Of a DNA stretch of 51,863 nt, positions 6,819 to 17,024 are shown in pieces. The DNA is from an uncultured Erysipelotrichaceae bacterium (GTDB taxonomy: Bacteria; Bacillota_I; Bacilli_A; RF39; UBA660). Below the pieces are notes generated by a model. It did no database searches, had not been told where the DNA came from, and saw nothing but the letters and a program-made list of their open reading frames with translations. The stretch's first letter is position 1. Every line of letters begins with the position of its first letter. The position numbers and the translations under genes are program-made. The stretch covers positions 1 to 51,863 of the forward strand of contig CACZQK010000019.1 of the NCBI GenBank assembly GCA_902783315.1, read 5' to 3'.

Positions 6819-6831
6819 AAAAACACCTTTT
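6800..6831 (-). terminator. Intrinsic terminator of nrd-trxB-dut operon
   Basis: AAAAGGTGTT-loop-AACACTTTTTTTT immediately after dut stop. Confidence 0.6.
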
Positions 6832-7291
6832 AAACATCTGTAGAACCAAATCCACCCTTTCTTACATTACTAGAGCTGTCATTATCACAAACTAAATACT
6901 TTGTAAACATCACTTGAGCAATAACGTCTCCTTTTTTTATATGAAGTTCTCGATTGCTACAATTAAATACTTGAATCATGAAATGGCCATCATTAGTAGA
7001 ATTTTCATAATAATCAGCATCAATAAGTCCAAATCCATGAGGCATAACAAGTCCTTTTTTAGGTCCACTAGACCGATTTATTAGAAAATAACATTCATCA
7101 TCTTGACAATAAGCTTTCAAGCCTGTTGAAATCAAGGTTGGTTCTATTCCAGGAGTATAAACAGGAACAATAATATCTTCGGCAGCTTCAATATCATATG
7201 CCGCTGAATGAGCTGTCTTACGAACAGGAATATGAATATCTTTATCTTCCCATCCTTTTACTATTTCAAAACCTCTAACTCGTGCCTTCAT
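6830..7291 (-). CDS. dut: dUTP diphosphatase (trimeric dUTPase)
   Basis: SAAYDI, RSS, GLIDADYY, IAQ, RKGGFGST motifs. Confidence 0.95.
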   Translation of the reverse strand: MKARVRGFEIVKGWEDKDIHIPVRKTAHSAAYDIEAAEDIIVPVYTPGIEPTLISTGLKAYCQDDECYFLINRSSGPKKGLVMPHGFGLIDADYYENSTNDGHFMIQVFNCSNRELHIKKGDVIAQVMFTKYLVCDNDSSSNVRKGGFGSTDV

Positions 7292-7299
7292 TACAATCC

Positions 7300-8217
7300 C
7301 TAAATAGTACCAACTAATTTTGCTTCGTTTTCTAAATAATGAATAGCAAAATTAGCAGCTTCTGCACCATCTGATACAGCCGTTGTTAATTGTCTAAGAT
7401 TTTTATTTCGACAATCTCCTGCAACAAAGATTCCTTGTTCTGCAGTTGTACAATCATCGCTCAAAATATATTTTTTATCACTTAAAGGCAATATATTTTG
7501 AACTAAAGAAGTTTCAGCATTCATACCAATTGATAAAAACATTCCTTGAACTTTCAAATTATGACGTTCCCCATCTTTTTCAAAAACAATTTCCTCTAAT
7601 TCATCTTCACCCTTTATTTCAACAACACTAGAATGATACAAAATTTCTACGTTTTCTTTTTCTTGCAACCCATCAAATAATGCTTTCTCACATCTTAACT
7701 TACTACCATGATAAATTAAATAAACCTTTCTACACAAATTAGACATATATAAAGCATTAGTAACAGCTGTATTAGCACCACCTACAATAGCAACATCCAA
7801 TCCCTTGAAAAAAGCACCATCACAAGATGTACAAAAAGAAATTCCTTTTCCAATAAACTTTTCTTCATTCGGCAAATTTAAGAGTCTATGCTTTGCACCA
7901 GTAGCAATAATAACTGTTTTAGCTTGATATTCACCATCATCAGTAATTATTGTTTTCACTTTGCCAGGCTTAATATCAAGAACCTCTTCAATAACAATAT
8001 CAACACCTAAATTAACTGCTTGTTCATATAAATTACTAGCAAAATCCGCACCATTTATAGAAATAAAACCTGGAAAATTTTGAATAGAAGGTGTAGACGC
8101 AATCTGCCCACCTATACACTCTCTTTCAAAAATAATAGTCTTTAAATTAGCTCTAGCACAGTAGATACCTGCCGTAATACCAGCAGGTCCTCCACCAATA
8201 ATCATAACATCATACAT
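7300..8217 (-). CDS. trxB: Thioredoxin-disulfide reductase
   Basis: GGGPAG, ATGA, SFCTSCDG active site, GGANTA, FVAGD. Confidence 0.93.
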   Translation of the reverse strand: MYDVMIIGGGPAGITAGIYCARANLKTIIFERECIGGQIASTPSIQNFPGFISINGADFASNLYEQAVNLGVDIVIEEVLDIKPGKVKTIITDDGEYQAKTVIIATGAKHRLLNLPNEEKFIGKGISFCTSCDGAFFKGLDVAIVGGANTAVTNALYMSNLCRKVYLIYHGSKLRCEKALFDGLQEKENVEILYHSSVVEIKGEDELEEIVFEKDGERHNLKVQGMFLSIGMNAETSLVQNILPLSDKKYILSDDCTTAEQGIFVAGDCRNKNLRQLTTAVSDGAEAANFAIHYLENEAKLVGTI

Positions 8218-8220
8218 ATA

Positions 8221-10590
8221 CTACTTTCCTTTTTTTATAGATTCAACATATTTTTTAATATTTGAAAGATTAGCAATAACATTAACCTTACCTTTTTTTA
8301 TTTCAACAAGAGTAGGAGCCTGTTTAACTCCAAGTTTCTTTGTCAATTCTACCTCTTCTTCTGCATCGACAAAACGATATGAAACTTGGGCTTTTTCCAA
8401 TATTTTTTTTGCAGAAGCACAATTTGGACAAGTTTTTGATCCAAAAAGAATCAAATCATCATCCATCTTTTCACATTTTTCACTGCACTCCTCTATTTTT
8501 TCTTCTGCCTTTTTACAATTACTATTTTTGAGATTATACTCCTTTCTCATTTTATATTCTTTACTTTTTCCATCATTCCAATTCTTTACTGGTCTATAAT
8601 ATCCAGTAATACGACTATATACTTCAACTTCTCCACCACATTTTGGACACTTTGAATGATCACCTTTTAAATATCCATGTTTATTGCAAACAGAATATGT
8701 AGGGCTAATCGTATAATAAGGCAACTTATAATTTTCCGCTATTTTACGAACTAAGTTAGCCGTAGTTTTCCAGTCTTTCAACCTTTCTCCTAAGAATGCA
8801 TGAAATACCGTTCCTGATGTATATAGTGTTTGTAACTCATCTTGAATATCTAAAGCTTCAAAAATATCATCAGTATATCCAACTGGTAAATGAGAACTAT
8901 TTGTATAATATGGAGTATCATCGTCAGAAGCAGTAATAATATCAGGATATAAGACTTTATCTTTCTTTGCCATACGATAAGATGTAGATTCAGCTGGTGT
9001 TGCTTCTAAGTTATATAAGTCACCATATTCCTCTTGATAATCAGATAATTTTTCTCTCATAAAATTCAAAACTTCTTTAGTAAATTTCTGAGCTTTCTCA
9101 TGTGTTAAATCTTCTCCAACCCATTTAGCATTTAAACTTGCTTCATTCATACCTACTAGACCAATAGTGGAAAAATGATTATTAAATGTTCCCAAATATC
9201 TTCTTGTATAAGGATATAATCCTTCATCTAATAATTTAGTAATAACATTCCTTTTTATTTTCAAACTTCTAGCAGCAAGATTCATTAAATTTTCAAGTTT
9301 CTCATAAAATTCCTGTTCAGTTTCCGAAGTATATGCAATCCTTGGCATATTAATAGTAACAACACCAATAGATCCCGTAGACTCTCCACTTCCAAAAAAT
9401 CCACCACTTTTCTTTCTAAGTTCTCTTAAATCAAGCCTCAAACGACAACACATACTTCTAACATCACTTGGTTCCATATCACTATTTACATAATTTGAAA
9501 AATATGGAGTCCCATACTTGGCAGTCATTTCAAACAATAATTTATTATTTTCACTTTCAGACCAATCAAAATCTTTTGTAATAGAATAAGTTGGAATAGG
9601 GTACTGGAATCCTCTACCATTAGCGTCTCCTTCTACCATAATTTCAATAAATACCTTATTAATTAAATCCATTTCTTTTTGACAATCTTTGTATTTAAAA
9701 TCTTGTTCAACGCCACCAACAATAGCATTTAACTCAGCAAGATCATTTGGTACAGTCCAATCCAATGTAATATTAGTAAATGGAGCTTGAGTTCCCCATC
9801 TAGAAGGAGTATTAACACCATAAATAAAAGATTGAATTGCTTGCTTAACATCAGTATAAGATAAATTATCAGCTTTAACAAAAGGAGCTAAATAAGTATC
9901 AAAGGAAGAAAACGCTTGTGCACCCGCCCATTCATTTTGTAAAATACCAAGGAAATTAACCATTTGATTACACAAAGTAGATAAATGTTTTGCAGGACTA
10001 CTAGTAATTCTTCCAGGCACTCCTCCTAATCCCTCTTGGATTAACTGTTTTAAACTCCAACCAGCACAATAACCAGTAAGCATTGATAAATCATGAATAT
10101 GGAAATCACAATTATGATGTGCTTTTGCTATTTCTTCATCATAAACCTCACTTAACCAATAGTTAGCTGTAATAGCACCTGAATTATTCAATATTAAACC
10201 ACCAACAGAATAGGTAACAGTAGAATTTTCTTTTACTCTCCAATCTGTAACATTGATATAACTATTTACTACTTGTTTATAATCTAGTATTGTTGATTCC
10301 ATTTTTCTTTGTTTTTCATGCAATTTACGATATAAAATATATGCTTTAGCAATATTCGAATATCCTGCTTGTGATAATACATACTCAACCTTATCTTGAA
10401 TAGCTTCTTCATCAATAATATTATTTTTTATACTAGGTTCAAAAGCTGCTGTTACCTTCAATGCTAAAAAATCAATAACATTTTCATCATAGTTTACCTT
10501 TTCAGCTTCAAAAGCCTTTATAATGGCACTTTTAATTTTTTCTATTTCAAATGGAATAATCTTTCCTTCTCTATTTCTTACTTTATACAT
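8221..10590 (-). CDS. nrdD: Class III anaerobic ribonucleoside-triphosphate reductase with N-terminal ATP-cone and C-terminal glutaredoxin/NrdH-like domain
   Basis: HIHDL, GYCAGW, SMCCRL thiyl loop, EATPAES, CxxH/CxxC Zn site, YSRITGYY glycyl-radical motif, terminal TCPNC...QAPTL redoxin. Confidence 0.95.
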   Translation of the reverse strand: MYKVRNREGKIIPFEIEKIKSAIIKAFEAEKVNYDENVIDFLALKVTAAFEPSIKNNIIDEEAIQDKVEYVLSQAGYSNIAKAYILYRKLHEKQRKMESTILDYKQVVNSYINVTDWRVKENSTVTYSVGGLILNNSGAITANYWLSEVYDEEIAKAHHNCDFHIHDLSMLTGYCAGWSLKQLIQEGLGGVPGRITSSPAKHLSTLCNQMVNFLGILQNEWAGAQAFSSFDTYLAPFVKADNLSYTDVKQAIQSFIYGVNTPSRWGTQAPFTNITLDWTVPNDLAELNAIVGGVEQDFKYKDCQKEMDLINKVFIEIMVEGDANGRGFQYPIPTYSITKDFDWSESENNKLLFEMTAKYGTPYFSNYVNSDMEPSDVRSMCCRLRLDLRELRKKSGGFFGSGESTGSIGVVTINMPRIAYTSETEQEFYEKLENLMNLAARSLKIKRNVITKLLDEGLYPYTRRYLGTFNNHFSTIGLVGMNEASLNAKWVGEDLTHEKAQKFTKEVLNFMREKLSDYQEEYGDLYNLEATPAESTSYRMAKKDKVLYPDIITASDDDTPYYTNSSHLPVGYTDDIFEALDIQDELQTLYTSGTVFHAFLGERLKDWKTTANLVRKIAENYKLPYYTISPTYSVCNKHGYLKGDHSKCPKCGGEVEVYSRITGYYRPVKNWNDGKSKEYKMRKEYNLKNSNCKKAEEKIEECSEKCEKMDDDLILFGSKTCPNCASAKKILEKAQVSYRFVDAEEEVELTKKLGVKQAPTLVEIKKGKVNVIANLSNIKKYVESIKKGK

Positions 10591-10600
10591 ATTTAACTCC

Positions 10601-11278
10601 TCATTCTCCTCTAATAATTACATTAGGGAATCTTTCTTCTAATATTTTTTCTAATTTTTTTAACTCATCTCTTGAAAAAGATTCTAATAATTGATTTTGA
10701 ACATTTTCACTTAATTTAAAATTTTGAATATAGTATTTTTCTGAAAAAGATTTACATAAACTCAAAATCTTATTAACATCATGAAAACCTTTAATGATAG
10801 TAGTCCTAAATTCATAATCAATTCCACTATTTTTAATAAGCTCAACACTTCTTTTAATATTTTCTATATGAACTTTGCATTTAGTAATATTTTCATATTC
10901 ATTAAAAATTGTTTTTATATCCATAGCAATATAATCTACTAAATGCTTATCAATTAATTCCTGCAAAACACTTGGATTAGTACCATTTGTATCTAATTTA
11001 ACAGAAAACCCTTTCTCTTTAATAATTTCAATAAAATGAACTAAATCTGCTTGTATCGTAGGCTCGCCACCACTAATTACAACTCCATCTAAAAGTTTTT
11101 TTCTTTTATCCAAATAATCAAATATAGTACTTTCTGATATTTTTCCATCACAACAAGAAATTAATTCTGAATTATGACAATAAGAGCATTTAAAATTACA
11201 CCCTTGTGTAAATACAATGCAAGCTGTTTTGTCGGGATAATCAAGTAAAGTCAATTTTTGAAAACCACTTATTTTCAT
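10601..11278 (-). CDS. nrdG: Anaerobic RNR activating protein (radical SAM)
   Basis: DYP, GCNFKCSYCHN, SGGEPT, KLDTNG, YEFRTT. Confidence 0.93.
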   Translation of the reverse strand: MKISGFQKLTLLDYPDKTACIVFTQGCNFKCSYCHNSELISCCDGKISESTIFDYLDKRKKLLDGVVISGGEPTIQADLVHFIEIIKEKGFSVKLDTNGTNPSVLQELIDKHLVDYIAMDIKTIFNEYENITKCKVHIENIKRSVELIKNSGIDYEFRTTIIKGFHDVNKILSLCKSFSEKYYIQNFKLSENVQNQLLESFSRDELKKLEKILEERFPNVIIRGE

Positions 11279-13233
11279 TTTCCACCTACTTTCAAGTGAG
11301 CAAATGAAACATCAGACTGTATTAGCTCCTTTATTAAATCAATAATTCTTTTATTATTGGCTCTTTTTGATATTTTAAAAACAGTTAAGTTACCACCTGG
11401 TAAAAGTTTTTGCACCTTAGCAAAGTCTTCATATTTTTCTAAGAATTTTGCATTACAAATTAAATCATACAACTTCTCTTCATTAATATCTTTATGAACC
11501 CCATAAATAGCCTTATCTAATTCAACAAAATATTTTCTAGCAGTCGTTGAACCAGATTCAAATATTGAAAAATTTAATCTCGTATCTATACTAAATTGTT
11601 TTACTTTTTCATTTAAATAATTCAATAATTCAAATAAAAATTCATATTGTTTTTTACTATCTTGATTATAAGCTAAAACACATTCTTTTAATCCAATAAG
11701 ACCAACTCCTAAAACCCCTGATTTAAGAATTTTTCGAATCTTTTGACCAGTTTCTAACCTCTCATCTCCTAAAACATTTCCATGAAACAATGCCGTATAG
11801 TTTTCTTTATTTCGGCTTCCTAAATTTTCAAACATAAACAACAATTCATTTTTAGCAAGCTCCAAAAGTTGATCAAGTTCTTCATAAAAACTATCAAAGC
11901 TTTTACTATTAAGACATTTTAATCCCAATCTTCCTAAGTTAATGGATGTTTTTGCAACAAACATTCTTCCGTTTGATTTTCCCACAGTATCATTTATATT
12001 ATCATAAATTGTAAGTCCGTCACTAAAGTATTCAACTTCATTATTATTTTTCTTAGGAAAAGAAAATGAAATATTTTTATTACTAATAACCAAACCAGCA
12101 AGTTTTTGTAAATATTCATCACATGAATCAGAAAAGACTTTAAAGTTTACATGAATATTATCCAAATAATTATTATCATTTAAATAACTTATTACATCTT
12201 CACGAATCAAAGAACCAATTCTACTATTTTCTTTATAACCAATACTAATGGAATAAATACTACTTGCTAAATCATTAGCCTTAATAGTATTAAATATCCT
12301 ATATATAGTATCAGAAATATATCGTTCTGTTCTTTCAAATGTACTTTCTAATACAATTTCAAAAACTTCCTTTATTTTAGAATTAACTAAGAAAAGCTCA
12401 AATTCTGAAATAGAAACATCAATGTCATTCACATTAAAAATAACTTCTTGAATTCTTTTAAAATTTAAAAACTCATAAACTCCAATAAATTTAAAATACT
12501 TTTCTAGCTCCTTTAAAAAATTTCTTCGATAAAATCCCAAAAAAAAGTTTTTTAACATAAAATCTAAATTATTAATTCCAATCTCAGAACTAACTTCATT
12601 AGAAGAATTAATAATATTATTTAAAAATTCATCTAAATAATAATCATCATCACTAATATTTATCTTTAAATAAATATTTGAAAGATATCCAAGTAAAAAA
12701 CTATCTAAATCATGAATAAATATTTTTCCTTCTTCAATTGCCCTTACAAACTTGTTATCTAATATATAAGCTTTAGCATATTCAGAAGAAACAATTTTTC
12801 CAAAACTACTTAACATTTCATTTGGACTTTCATAACTATCAAACTTTTCACTTTCTTTTTCTAATCTTTCCACTACCTTTACAAATTTATGTTGCTGCTT
12901 TACATTAAAAGTTCTTCTAGAAGCAGCTCTCTCTTGCCTATACTCCTTAAAAGCTATAAAAACTTCTTGATATCCCATTTCACTAAGCTTGTTTTCTATA
13001 ATATCTTGAATATCTTCAACATTAATTGTCTTACGATCTTTATAATTATCATTAATATATGTTAAGACTTCTTTAAAAACACGATGAACATTTTTTCCTT
13101 CTTCATTATCATAAATAACACAAAAAGCGTTTCTAATAGCAACAGCTAATTTTGAGGCATCAAAGCTTACTCTCTGACCACTTCTTTTAACAACCACTAA
13201 ATTATCAAGGACCTTATTCCACATAGCATTCAA
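11275..13233 (-). CDS. Degenerate NrdD paralog (ATP-cone plus NrdD barrel; no catalytic Cys or glycyl-radical domain)
   Basis: VVKRSGQRVSFD ATP-cone, IFIHDLD, GR...TSINLGRL, GVGLIGLKE, GGN; ends before Zn-ribbon/RxxGY. Confidence 0.85.
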   Translation of the reverse strand: MNAMWNKVLDNLVVVKRSGQRVSFDASKLAVAIRNAFCVIYDNEEGKNVHRVFKEVLTYINDNYKDRKTINVEDIQDIIENKLSEMGYQEVFIAFKEYRQERAASRRTFNVKQQHKFVKVVERLEKESEKFDSYESPNEMLSSFGKIVSSEYAKAYILDNKFVRAIEEGKIFIHDLDSFLLGYLSNIYLKINISDDDYYLDEFLNNIINSSNEVSSEIGINNLDFMLKNFFLGFYRRNFLKELEKYFKFIGVYEFLNFKRIQEVIFNVNDIDVSISEFELFLVNSKIKEVFEIVLESTFERTERYISDTIYRIFNTIKANDLASSIYSISIGYKENSRIGSLIREDVISYLNDNNYLDNIHVNFKVFSDSCDEYLQKLAGLVISNKNISFSFPKKNNNEVEYFSDGLTIYDNINDTVGKSNGRMFVAKTSINLGRLGLKCLNSKSFDSFYEELDQLLELAKNELLFMFENLGSRNKENYTALFHGNVLGDERLETGQKIRKILKSGVLGVGLIGLKECVLAYNQDSKKQYEFLFELLNYLNEKVKQFSIDTRLNFSIFESGSTTARKYFVELDKAIYGVHKDINEEKLYDLICNAKFLEKYEDFAKVQKLLPGGNLTVFKISKRANNKRIIDLIKELIQSDVSFAHLKVGGK

Positions 13234-13256
13234 TCACCTCACTTAGGCTAAAATCA

Positions 13257-13285
13257 TAGTACCATTCTATCAAAAAATAAGCAAT
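13257..13285 (-). promoter_or_regulatory. SigA-type promoter of nrd operon
   Basis: TTGCTT-N17-TACTAT with TG extension; coordinates approximate. Confidence 0.5.
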
Positions 13286-13441
13286 ATTTTTTTAGATAAT
13301 TTTTTAATTGTTTTTTTAAAGTGTAAATCTTTTTTTTAAAAAACGATAAAAAAAAACATATAATAAAAGGAATTTCTAAAATGTGAATATATTCTAAGAT
13401 TTTACAGTAAATTTACATAAAAAAAACAAAATAAAAAAAAG

Positions 13442-13471
13442 ATGTTTTTTATAACAATTTATAAAAAACAT
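13442..13471. repeat. Perfect 13-bp inverted repeat (terminator or operator)
   Basis: ATGTTTTTTATAA-caat-TTATAAAAAACAT flanked by A/T runs. Confidence 0.6.
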
Positions 13472-13668
13472 TTTTTGTTTTCTAATTATCAAAAAGAAAA
13501 AAACAATAAAAACAACATTTAAAATATTTTTAAATATAATTACATTTTCTATCATTTATAGCATCAACAAAAAAATAAGATTGCTTACCCGCTTAATACA
13601 CAAACAAGATACTTATTAACATAATAAATGCAAAATTAGTCATACTCTTTATGATAATATTTTTACAC

Positions 13669-14772
13669 TCAACTAATAGAACGTGCTCTTTGTTTTAAAG
13701 CTTTAATTAATCGATAACCACAATTTCTTCTCTGTTTTCCTTGTTCTATATTAAAGAAATCAATGCAAGTAAGCGAAGGATTTTTTCTTTTGGCGACACA
13801 ATAAGCTTCCTTATGTGATGATACAAATTCCTGAGCTTCCCTTTCATTATTTGCTAAATCAATATGTTTTGTATCATCATTATATCTTTCTAATGCTTCT
13901 TCTTGACTAATTCTATCCGCTATTTTTAACACTTCTTTTTCTATACAGATATCATTATTATCACCATATTTAGCATATATGTATTGAATCGTGCCATCCT
14001 CTCGAAAGTTATTTGGATTATATTTACAAACATTAATATAATCAATAAGCCAAAAAGGACAACTAAATTCAAATTCAGATAAATCTTTAACACAAATAGA
14101 ATCTTTTATTTTATAATATCTTATCCCTGTATTAGGTATATTATCCTTGTATTCAGCTATAAATAGTTCATCTTTCTCTTTTTCGAAAACTTCCTGCAAT
14201 TTTGAAATTCTATTTACAAAAGATTGATTTAATAAACAAAGTGCCATTTCAAGATTTAATAAATCCCATACTTCTGTCTTTTCAACAGGAATATATAAAG
14301 TACATGATGAATTAAATTTATATATTTTTAAAGCTTCTTTTTCTTGATTTGTTTTCATAAAATTATAAGGTTCAATAATTGAATTTAAGAATTCATTTCG
14401 CTCATCTGGTTGCATTAAAGTTCCATGTATTTTTAACTTATTAGTATTAATTTCACTAAAAGTTACATCTGACTCAAAAAACATTTTATGCCATACTTCC
14501 TCTGAAAAAAGCTTAGAATCTAAAAAATCTGAAATAATAATATGATCTCCAGCTTGAAATGAAAGTTGAATATATGAATCACTATTAAATGTAATTTTGT
14601 CTTGCATTTTTATGAATCGACTTAAATCAAAAGGCTCATCTTTTGGATAACTGGTTGAACTACCAGCAAAACAAAACGTAGAAATCGAATCATTTTGATA
14701 TTTAAAAATATTTCCAGACTCATCTACAAAATATCTATAATTATCAGAGTTAAAACCATTAAGTATCATCAA
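13669..14772 (-). CDS. Hypothetical protein (orphan, 367 aa)
   Basis: Long ORF with GGAGGTG RBS and extended -10 TGTTATAAT; no recognisable family. Confidence 0.75.
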   Translation of the reverse strand: MMILNGFNSDNYRYFVDESGNIFKYQNDSISTFCFAGSSTSYPKDEPFDLSRFIKMQDKITFNSDSYIQLSFQAGDHIIISDFLDSKLFSEEVWHKMFFESDVTFSEINTNKLKIHGTLMQPDERNEFLNSIIEPYNFMKTNQEKEALKIYKFNSSCTLYIPVEKTEVWDLLNLEMALCLLNQSFVNRISKLQEVFEKEKDELFIAEYKDNIPNTGIRYYKIKDSICVKDLSEFEFSCPFWLIDYINVCKYNPNNFREDGTIQYIYAKYGDNNDICIEKEVLKIADRISQEEALERYNDDTKHIDLANNEREAQEFVSSHKEAYCVAKRKNPSLTCIDFFNIEQGKQRRNCGYRLIKALKQRARSIS

Positions 14773-14867
14773 AACACCTCCAGTTACGCATTATTATAAC
14801 ATACATTTCTTTTTTATAAAAAAATAAAATGAAACTCATAAGAATTTCATCTGTTTTTTACTAATAA

Positions 14868-17024
14868 TTATCGCTCTATTAAGCTTAAACTAACTTTATT
14901 TTTTTCTAAAGAAATATCATCCACATAACAATTCACAATATCACCAACACTAAATAAATCACTTGGGTGTTTTACATAATTAGTAGATAATTTAGAAATA
15001 TGAGCCAAACCATCATCATGCAAACCAATATCAATAAATAAACCAAAGTCAACAACATTACGAACAGTCCCCTGTAATCTCATGCCTATTTTTAAATCTT
15101 TTATATCTAAAATGTCACTTTTTAGTATTGGTTGTGGATATTCATCTCTAGGATCTAAATTAGGTTTTTTCAAAGATGTGATAACATCCTCAAATGTATA
15201 AATATCAATATTTAAAATTTTTCTAATCTCTTCCAAATTAATTTTATTCAAAGCAGAAATCAATTCATCAGTTCCAACTTTACTAGCATCCATTCCTAGT
15301 TTTTCCAATAGCTTATTTGCAATCGCATAACTCTCAGGATGAATAGCAGTAGAATCTAAAATATTATTACCATCTGTAATACGTAAAAACCCAATAGCCT
15401 GTTCATAAGCTTTATCTGATAATAATTTTTCTTTTTTGATTTGTTCCCGAGACATAATTTTACCAACAGAATCGCGATAAGAAAGAATCTTCTTAATAGC
15501 CGCTTTCGTAATTCCCGAAACATAAGACAACAAAGATGCCGATGCGGTATTAATATTAACTCCAACACTGTTAACACATTTTTCGACAACAAAATCTAAA
15601 GAAGAAGATAATTTTTTTTCACTAACATCATGTTGATATAAACCAACACCAATCCCCTCTGGAGGAATTTTAACAAGTTCAGCAAGAGGATCTTGTAGCC
15701 GTCTTCCAATACTAACAGCACTTCTTTTCTCAATAGCTAAATCAGGAAACTCTTCAATTGCTTGAGGAGAAGCAGAATAAATAGATGCACCAGCCTCGCT
15801 AACAATAACATATTTACAAGATAAATTATATTCCTTAATAATGTCGCTACAAAGCTTTTCAGATTCACGTGATGCCGTACCATTTCCTATCGCAATAATA
15901 TCAATTTTATATTTTTGAATTAATTGATAAATAACCTCTTTAGACATTTTTATATTCTTTTCTTCATTTCCCTTTAAAAATGGTTTTACAACGACACTAT
16001 CCAAATATTTTCCCTGTTCATCCAAAACAGCTAGCTTACAACCATTAACATATCCAGGATCAAAAGCTAATACTCTCCGCTCTTTCATTGGGGGTGTTAA
16101 AAGTAAAGACTCTAAATTCTTACCAAAATTTAAAATAGCAGCTTCTTCTCCTTTTTCTGTAAGTTCACTACGAATTTCTCTTTGAATAGAAGGAGCAATT
16201 AATCTTTTATAAGAATCATTAATTGCATCAATAACATAGGACGTAACAAAACTTTTATCATTCTTAATAACTTTTTTTTCTAAAAAAGATAAAATTTCAT
16301 CTTTATTAACATCGAGACTAACATTTAAAATCTTTTCTTTCTCTCCACGATTAATAGCTAAAATACGATGTGGCTTAATTTGTTTAATCAACTCACTATA
16401 ATCATAATACATCTCATAAATAGCATTAGAATCAACTGCATCCTTCTTTTTCTTAGAGACAAGAATTCCATTTTTATAATAATAACCTCGAATAAAGCGA
16501 CGATAACTTGCATTATCACTAATCCACTCTGCAATAATATAGCAAGCCCCCGTAATGGCTGTTGAAGTATCACAAACTTTATCGGTTATAAATTTAGAAC
16601 ATAAAGAATCAATATCTCCACTAGCAGGAAAAGCCATAACCATTTTAGCAAGAGGTTCCAATCCAAGAGCAATAGCTTCTGTTGCTTTAGATTTTTTCTT
16701 TTCCTTATATGGGCGATAAATATCTTCAACTTCAACCAGCTTAGAACAAGCCATTATCGCCTCTTCTATTTCCTTTGTTAACATTCCTTTTTCATCTATT
16801 AAACGAACGACATCTTCTTTTCGCTTTAATAAATTTTCTTGATAAGCATAAACTTCTTCTATTTTCTTTATAGTTTCCTCATCCAAAGCCCCTGTTACTT
16901 CCTTTCGATATCTAGCAATAAAAGGAATCGTATTTCCATCACTTAATAAATTTAATACAACATCTACTTGCTTTTCTGTAATATTTAAATTACTAGCTAT
17001 TTTTTTTATAATTTGTTCACTCAT
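14868..17024 (-). CDS. tex: Tex-family RNA-binding transcriptional accessory protein
   Basis: GNTIPFIARYRKE, DPG, IAIGNGTASRE, SIGRRLQDPL, C-terminal S1 domain; start MSEQ after GAGGTG RBS. Confidence 0.95.
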   Translation of the reverse strand: MSEQIIKKIASNLNITEKQVDVVLNLLSDGNTIPFIARYRKEVTGALDEETIKKIEEVYAYQENLLKRKEDVVRLIDEKGMLTKEIEEAIMACSKLVEVEDIYRPYKEKKKSKATEAIALGLEPLAKMVMAFPASGDIDSLCSKFITDKVCDTSTAITGACYIIAEWISDNASYRRFIRGYYYKNGILVSKKKKDAVDSNAIYEMYYDYSELIKQIKPHRILAINRGEKEKILNVSLDVNKDEILSFLEKKVIKNDKSFVTSYVIDAINDSYKRLIAPSIQREIRSELTEKGEEAAILNFGKNLESLLLTPPMKERRVLAFDPGYVNGCKLAVLDEQGKYLDSVVVKPFLKGNEEKNIKMSKEVIYQLIQKYKIDIIAIGNGTASRESEKLCSDIIKEYNLSCKYVIVSEAGASIYSASPQAIEEFPDLAIEKRSAVSIGRRLQDPLAELVKIPPEGIGVGLYQHDVSEKKLSSSLDFVVEKCVNSVGVNINTASASLLSYVSGITKAAIKKILSYRDSVGKIMSREQIKKEKLLSDKAYEQAIGFLRITDGNNILDSTAIHPESYAIANKLLEKLGMDASKVGTDELISALNKINLEEIRKILNIDIYTFEDVITSLKKPNLDPRDEYPQPILKSDILDIKDLKIGMRLQGTVRNVVDFGLFIDIGLHDDGLAHISKLSTNYVKHPSDLFSVGDIVNCYVDDISLEKNKVSLSLIER

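Follow-up and report, generated by a model that had tools for sequence, protein, structure and literature searches.

An apparently non-catalytic, conserved paralog of NrdD heads a four-gene anaerobic ribonucleotide reductase cassette in uncultured gut Bacilli

The 51,863-nucleotide stretch analysed here (the window: contig CACZQK010000019.1 of assembly GCA_902783315.1, from an uncultured Erysipelotrichaceae bacterium) encodes a full-length relative of NrdD, the large subunit of class III (anaerobic) ribonucleotide reductase (RNR), in which the elements for radical chemistry are lost while the ATP-cone is kept. We are highly confident that this gene is a conserved non-catalytic paralog. It travels, by descent and by transfer, at the head of a four-gene cassette that also holds the activase gene nrdG, a complete nrdD with a glutaredoxin-like (Grx) tail (nrdD-grx) and the thioredoxin-reductase-like gene trxB. 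The gene and the parts on which the argument turns are:

11275..13233, minus strand: non-catalytic NrdD paralog, an uninterrupted 652-aa open reading frame (ORF) from TTG 13233, with its stop TGA at 11277-11275
12925..13197, minus strand: ATP-cone, residues 13-103, the best-conserved part of the paralog family
12703..12714, minus strand: HDLD (residues 174-177), with Phe172 in place of the first His of HxHD and Asn in place of the beta-A Cys that comes next in active enzymes
12007..12042, minus strand: finger loop EVEYFSDGLTIY, residues 398-409, without the thiyl-radical Cys
11308..11994, minus strand: C-terminal half of the barrel, residues 414-642, ending before the Zn ribbon and glycyl-radical domain

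The losses were read from a MAFFT alignment in which the paralog was set against active enzymes of its own bacterial family. Active NrdD carries its thiyl-radical cysteine at the finger-loop tip, within an MGCR or MCCR motif, and the conserved cysteine of strand beta-A is present in 92.6% of class III sequences (PMC9669993). Where active relatives read EVGYMGCRTRV in the finger loop, the paralog reads EVEYFSDGLTI; their ATPAEG has become ESGSTT, which turns the TPAE loop into SGST. The triphosphate motif HxHD is FIHD, the beta-F asparagine is phenylalanine, the NxN flap motif has gone, leaving a 10-residue gap in the alignment, and the segment YYTNSFHVPV is deleted. The last strand present is the one preceding the Zn ribbon, and the protein has neither the ribbon nor the glycyl-radical domain (RxxGY). 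An earlier sequence-only reading of the window had noted the missing cysteine after HDLD, the YFSDGL loop, the change of TPAE to SGST and the early stop, and had called the protein catalytically dead. Each of these observations stands against the active relatives, and elements of both the radical relay and substrate binding are absent by alignment, which supports the view that the paralog is incapable of class III radical chemistry.

Of the 150 representatives listed at 50% identity, 51 were fragments below 560 aa and were set aside, which left 99. The finger-loop cysteine is present at the aligned column in 10 of the 99 and absent in 89, 16 of which have a cysteine elsewhere in the loop window; the beta-A cysteine is found in 10, TPAE in 8 and RxxGY near the end in 4. 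Within the 69-row clade that holds the query, no cysteine column exceeds 68%, and that column lies outside the finger loop. The paralog family has instead a finger-loop consensus of its own, EYFSxGxRI, with F403 and G406 at 85% or more. The sequence-only reading had allowed that a finger-loop cysteine together with a radical domain supplied in trans would overturn it. Such an arrangement does exist in active relatives (see below), but a separate small ORF for a glycyl-radical domain was found in 0/4 other paralog-carrying genomes, in a search whose positive control (G001) matched at 5e-29, and a search without a control found none in the window's own genome.

What remains of the protein is predicted to fold as an NrdD. 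The Pfam ATP-cone (PF03477) matches residues 13-103 (2e-12, 47.9 bits against a cut-off of 25.8). The Pfam NRDD domain passes its threshold (107 bits against 26.2) with coverage of just profile positions 7-52, weakly, and 271-499 of 562, the latter at residues 414-642 (1e-30); Pfam reports no additional domain. The profile comparison proposed by the sequence-only reading thus came out in two ways: the ATP-cone and part of the barrel are matched at the domain level, while all six NCBIfam NrdD-type equivalog models with a match stay far below their cut-offs (best 166.8 bits against 764). The barrel landmarks it had pointed out are in place, namely HDLD at 174-177, GRMFVAKTSINLGRLG at 422-437, GLIGLKE at 511-517 and GG at 613-614. 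An AlphaFold2 model built from 109 aligned sequences has a pLDDT of 93.3 and a pTM of 0.92, and its top Foldseek matches are chains of Prevotella copri (P. copri) NrdD (E 3e-28), the top NrdD chains giving TM 0.64-0.79; the best fold matches are the NrdD proteins of P. copri, S. thermophilus, T4 and T. maritima. The model points to the ten-stranded alpha/beta-barrel of the RNR/glycyl-radical-enzyme type.

Conservation is by far the highest in the ATP-cone, with a mean top-residue frequency of 0.72 in the 69-row clade against 0.35-0.59 elsewhere in the protein body. Residues K16, R17, Y98, R102 and R106 of the paralog align to the nucleotide-binding Lys7, Arg8, Tyr83, Arg87 and Arg91 of P. copri NrdD, with residue roles taken from PMC11226230 and a PDB chain numbering offset of 4 inferred from the positions of HxHD and Tyr83. 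R17 and R106 are invariant and K16, Y98 and R102 at least 90% conserved across 109 sequences. The retained ATP-cone had been recognised in the sequence-only reading, and by alignment its nucleotide-contacting residues are intact.

Several lines of evidence support descent from the single-cysteine (formate-type) NrdD, as that reading had proposed, over a recent duplication of the neighbouring gene. The paralog is only 24-28% identical to the NrdD beside it, over two short stretches; its best NCBIfam match is PRK07111, and the closest solved sequence (4e-22), like the best structure, is P. copri NrdD. In a FastTree tree of 121 rows the query falls in a clade of 69 dead rows with a local support of 99, and the backbone that connects the remaining dead groups with the active enzymes is not resolved. 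These results, the tree included, support the view of the paralog as a folded non-catalytic descendant of the formate-type enzyme. Three labels of 'dead' that a regular expression had assigned within the active clade were rejected, being intein-bearing active enzymes. The active NrdD representatives P0248, P0261 and P0262 (1074-1109 aa) have a long insertion right after the MGC of the finger loop, intein-like at the catalytic cysteine, and none has RxxGY at its end.

The family is large and of constant length. The best 120 of 1439 proteins found by a word-indexed search (E<=1e-3) are all 626-658 aa long, with 46-99% identity and 98-100% query coverage, and an exhaustive search of 50%-identity clusters found 1085 at E<=1e-3, 300 at 1e-10 and 109 at 1e-30. 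Phage records gave two weak partial matches and nothing more. The ratio of non-synonymous to synonymous substitution rates (dN/dS) was estimated by the Nei-Gojobori method (NG86) for seven paralog pairs, with dS near saturation in all but the first. It is 0.07 against the 99% relative (16 synonymous and 5 non-synonymous changes), 0.23 between the window and locus L048, 0.20, 0.31 and 0.41 among L004, L005 and L060, and 0.56 and 0.57 in two deeper pairs. For the same pairs nrdG gives 0.13-0.31 and nrdD 0.05-0.16, and the range of the paralog overlaps those of nrdG and trxB. These substitution patterns indicate purifying selection on the paralog and not a decaying pseudogene. The claim that the gene is retained intact despite its divergence is therefore upheld by the dN/dS range of 0.07-0.57, the constant lengths and the 109 clusters at E<=1e-30.

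In the window, the paralog is the 5'-most of four tightly packed minus-strand genes, in the order paralog, nrdG, nrdD-grx and trxB. The remaining features of the cassette are:

10601..11278, minus strand: nrdG, encoding an NrdG2-type class III RNR activase (TIGR02495, 219 bits; cut-off 131)
8221..10590, minus strand: active nrdD, 789 aa (NF006126, 1131.6 bits against a cut-off of 548)
about 8221-8466, minus strand: glutaredoxin-like domain with CPNC, C-terminal on nrdD (Pfam Glutaredoxin, 6e-07)
7300..8217, minus strand: thioredoxin-reductase-like flavoprotein, trxB (TIGR01292, 314.5 bits, just below the cut-off of 343)

The neighbouring NrdD is complete: the ATP-cone and a full NRDD domain are there, the finger loop reads MCCR, and TPAE, the Zn ribbon and RITGY are all present. 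Its motifs and gene context place it in the thioredoxin-type branch, because it combines the MCCR loop with a glutaredoxin-like tail and an adjoining trxB; the distinction between MGCR and MCCR loops among NrdD types is drawn in PMC9669993. The idea that its ATP-cone is degenerate was dropped: the cone lysine is asparagine in the window, yet lysine is kept in the L004 and L005 orthologs. The window's genome (72% complete) has no PF02867 match, and class III is the only RNR found there. No NrdR was found in the same 72%-complete genome either, the sole other ATP-cone match being a weak one in a Nudix-like ORF.

This gene order, which the sequence-only reading had suggested looking for in related genomes, recurs in 11/11 main-clade loci examined (the window, L059, L048-L053, L004, L005 and L060). 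Across them the paralog shows 32-64% identity (99% to L059), NrdG 47-67%, NrdD 77-87% and the thioredoxin reductase 47-71%. In 11/11 syntenic loci nrdG starts no earlier than 23 nt before, and no later than 4 nt after, the end of the paralog stop codon. The paralog and the Grx-tailed NrdD also served as queries against 151 genomes, each from a different genus of the family; these genomes are kin and not independent, and the counts are descriptive. The Grx-tailed NrdD is present in 21/151, full-length at 75-100% identity in 20 and in pieces in G461, and 20 of the 21 also have the paralog. In 19 genomes the paralog lies one nrdG-length upstream of nrdD, on the same strand and directly before nrdG. 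The main-clade paralog was found in 0/130 of the remaining genomes, those without the Grx-tailed nrdD. Three of these 130 (G102, G277 and G456) carry a second dead clade, whose gene stands divergent beside another nrdD in 4/4 loci examined (L054-L056 and L067); nrdG follows that nrdD in 3/4, and the contig of L054 ends within nrdD.

Two observations touch the cassette itself. The Grx-like tail is kept in 20 NrdD orthologs at 75-100% identity, and the cassette NrdD is unusually conserved, with 77-87% identity where neighbouring genes show about 50%. The cassette contigs of L004 and L005 are filed under metagenome-assembled genomes of Muribaculaceae (Bacteroidota); this placement is likely a binning contamination, because the cassette genes cluster with those of the Bacilli family.

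The window's own genus tells how the cassette may have moved. The paralog was found in 0/24 same-genus genomes. The window contig nevertheless belongs to its genus, since orthologs of its flanking Tex-like gene in the genus share 76-81% identity with it. Three same-genus genomes have a canonical nrdD (729 aa, CMGCR, RRTCGY) and a short nrdG in the slot bounded by the Tex-like gene and the counterpart of window ORF 6830-7291; the same slot in the window holds a DUF3800-like ORF and the four-gene cassette, whose closest relatives are in other genera (NrdD 85-88%, paralog 54-56% identity). On the simplest reading of this arrangement, the cassette came in as one piece, dead gene and all, and displaced the reductase genes that had been resident there, which argues that the paralog is a working part of the system. 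Absence from relatives had been set in advance as a sign of decay. It does hold for the genus (0/24), yet the paralog is present in 19 other genera of the family.

The 367-aa DUF3800-like ORF lies at 13669-14772 on the minus strand, between the cassette and the Tex-like gene, and its DUF3800 match is weak (0.003, below the cut-off). No counterpart was found in the syntenic slot of the three same-genus genomes, and the ORF may have come in together with the cassette. In same-genus genomes another conserved ORF, about 210 aa long, stands divergent from the canonical nrdD-nrdG pair (L068:3225-3860, minus strand; L069:5239-5868, minus strand; L070:10598-11227, plus strand) and could be a regulator of that pair.

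The uninterrupted 652-aa frame of the sequence-only reading is the one listed at 11275..13233 from a TTG codon. The true start is likely ATG 13224, giving a predicted protein of 649 aa, because homologs begin at that methionine and a GAGGTG lies 10 nt before it. Two features mark the ends of the gene:

13235..13240, minus strand: Shine-Dalgarno-like GAGGTG, 10 nt upstream of ATG 13224, read from the sequence
11275..11278, minus strand: ATGA overlap of the paralog stop and nrdG start (translational coupling), with AGGTGGA just upstream

The overlap had been described before and is there as described. A promoter of its own, also claimed for the paralog, is not demonstrable: a promoter-like site, TTCACA-16-TATTAT, lies at 13387-13360, but such sites are no commoner than in shuffled sequence (39 found in the region against 42.9 expected). 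An Rfam scan of 7000-15000 (E<=0.1) found nothing in the 435-nt spacer upstream of the paralog and a single sub-threshold sRNA match, inside nrdD. Metatranscriptomic libraries from three studies contain contigs that match parts of the paralog, along with the rest of the operon, at 95-100% identity. Those from four runs leave 12436-12649 and 13292-13700 uncovered, though gaps in contigs carry no proof. The contigs of one sample end at 13236/13237 and a contig of a second study ends at 13219; that a transcript has its 5' end near the start codon is at most faintly hinted at by these ends.

What the paralog does is harder to say. The function that we favour, and consider an even call, is that of a nucleotide-sensing RNR accessory, a trans-acting ATP/dATP sensor for the reductase of the cassette. 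The ATP-cone of the paralog would bind ATP or dATP, and the nucleotide-bound protein would associate with NrdD, NrdG or both. Contact could be made by cone-to-cone packing, as in the dATP tetramers of P. copri NrdD, or alternatively with the paralog as a silent partner in a dimer; through either contact, the generation of the radical or the activity of the enzyme would be adjusted to the dNTP pool. A wider generalisation, which we regard as doubtful, would make dead NrdD paralogs a recurrent class of pseudoenzyme regulators, in which the cone on a dead barrel would form nucleotide-dependent hetero-oligomers with NrdD and/or the activase; the overall-activity switch would act in trans and would spread horizontally with the enzyme in a single cassette. 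The sequence-only reading had also raised a link to dormancy, and nothing in the data ties the gene to it.

Several observations weigh against this accessory role. The active NrdD has an ATP-cone of its own, and it is not evident why a second would be required. Sequence change is far faster in the paralog than in NrdD (32-64% against 77-87% identity), a poor fit to a large obligate interface between the two. The paralog has a deletion of about 20 residues at the place expected for the specificity-site hairpin, and this deletion may have altered the classical NrdD dimer interface. In G462 (94% complete) no paralog was found and the operon begins with nrdG (nrdG-nrdD-grx-trxB), and in G354 the paralog is unlinked, on another contig; because of these two genomes, the paralog is either dispensable or able to act in trans. 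Even its transcription is only hinted at, since DNA may occur in metatranscriptomic libraries and the contigs described above, while compatible with transcription, are no proof of it.

The paralog might instead work on the activase side, binding, stabilising or gating NrdG, for example as a docking scaffold, without any action on NrdD. We think this unlikely. The nrdG start lies within a few nucleotides of the paralog stop in 11/11 loci, with ATGA or one-base overlaps in most, and such spacing is typical of stoichiometric partners; nrdD follows only after a gap of 10-30 nt. However, activases are known to engage the glycyl-radical domain, and this is the very part that the paralog lacks. The second-clade gene is divergent from nrdD-nrdG, the paralog of G354 is unlinked, and a role confined to NrdG would leave the ATP-cone, as the most conserved part, unexplained.

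We give the same low weight to a silent heterodimer, in which the paralog replaces one NrdD monomer in an obligate asymmetric dimer with one active site. The modelled and Foldseek-matched NrdD fold would allow it, and at any given moment P. copri NrdD has one of its monomers active and the other inactive (PMC11226230). Against it stand the identity of only 24-28% to the partner NrdD over short stretches, the deletion of the specificity-site hairpin region, the drift of the paralog to 32-64% while NrdD stays at 77-87%, and the absence of the paralog from G462.

A function unrelated to the reductase, whether in nucleotide binding or signalling, with the operon as a mere vehicle, or in the regulation of something else, is improbable. 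The new and conserved consensus EYFSxGxRI in the finger loop hints at a new binding function, but the near-perfect co-occurrence with one type of nrdD, the position of members of both dead clades next to nrdD genes and the lack of any extra Pfam domain argue against such a detachment. That the paralog is a slowly decaying relic, its frame held open merely by the coupling of nrdG translation, is the worst fit to the data and already largely refuted, and we regard it as highly improbable: its faster evolution than its neighbours, the dN/dS of up to 0.57 in two pairs and its absence from G462 would suit decay, but not the constant full length in the best 120 homologs and across about 70 50%-identity clusters, the dN/dS well below 1 in 7/7 pairs, the very confident AlphaFold2 fold, an ATP-cone strongly conserved far from the 3' end, or the persistence of the gene unlinked from nrdG in G354.

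The search for the paralog in the window's genus led to an active enzyme with an unusual architecture. In 13/24 same-genus genomes there is a relative about 39% identical to the first 310 residues of the paralog. This is an active single-cysteine NrdD of about 760 aa that ends just after a Zn-ribbon-like CPxCG motif, and in 8/8 loci examined (L008, L010 and L012-L017) the large ORF is followed by a separate one of 50-60 aa, with its own ribosome-binding site and the glycyl-radical motif RIRRITGYLVG (for example L010:57-206, minus strand). The same enzyme is unsplit in two other genera (L037 and L038). About 80 further genomes give two-piece matches to frames 760-830 aa long, as the active enzyme does, and the active motifs were verified in 13 loci. 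No searched genome showed both an active member of this lineage and a dead one at E<=1e-20. The split NrdD recalls GrcA of pyruvate formate-lyase, a free and replaceable radical subunit.

To our knowledge, no non-catalytic large-subunit paralog has been known for class III RNR. A full-text literature search, whose scope did not extend to subscription papers and supplements, turned up no account of an NrdD without catalytic function, nor of one that is split and has a free radical subunit, and the accessible parts of PMC9669993, PMC11226230 and PMC13450708 mention neither. No NCBIfam model claims the paralog, and the ESM Atlas names its relatives by their domains only. For annotation this carries a warning, as these proteins of about 650 aa, which go by the name of 'anaerobic ribonucleoside-triphosphate reductase', are no reductases. 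Allosteric control of RNR sets dNTP pools and mutation rates. Here a large paralog family in uncultured gut Bacilli with small genomes is under selection, tied to one type of reductase and transferred with it. Should the paralog prove to sense ATP/dATP in trans, RNR regulation would gain a new layer, and the protein would offer a clean natural system in which to separate ATP-cone signalling from catalysis.

Comparison with known systems sets the paralog apart from each of them. It shares with the single-cysteine NrdD of P. copri (8P23/8P28) an N-terminal ATP-cone with the same nucleotide contacts, the barrel fold, the TSINLxR strand and GLxE; unlike the paralog, the P. copri-type enzyme has the thiyl cysteine, the beta-A cysteine, the NxN flap, an intact HxHD, TPAE, the Zn ribbon and the glycyl-radical domain. 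The split formate-type NrdD shares the VVKRSGQRV start of the cone and a helical insert of about 80 aa, which the window's own NrdD does not have, but none of its catalytic motifs is lost, and its radical domain is supplied in trans. Non-catalytic paralogs of RNR subunits kept for a structural or regulatory role are known from class I, in yeast Rnr4 and the herpesvirus R1 homologs, whereas the paralog described here is of the bacterial class III large-subunit type and keeps an ATP-cone. NrdR, the repressor of nrd operons, likewise carries an ATP-cone outside a catalytic RNR subunit and joins it to a Zn-ribbon DNA-binding domain; Pfam and NCBIfam find no such domain in the paralog, which has in its place a whole dead barrel.

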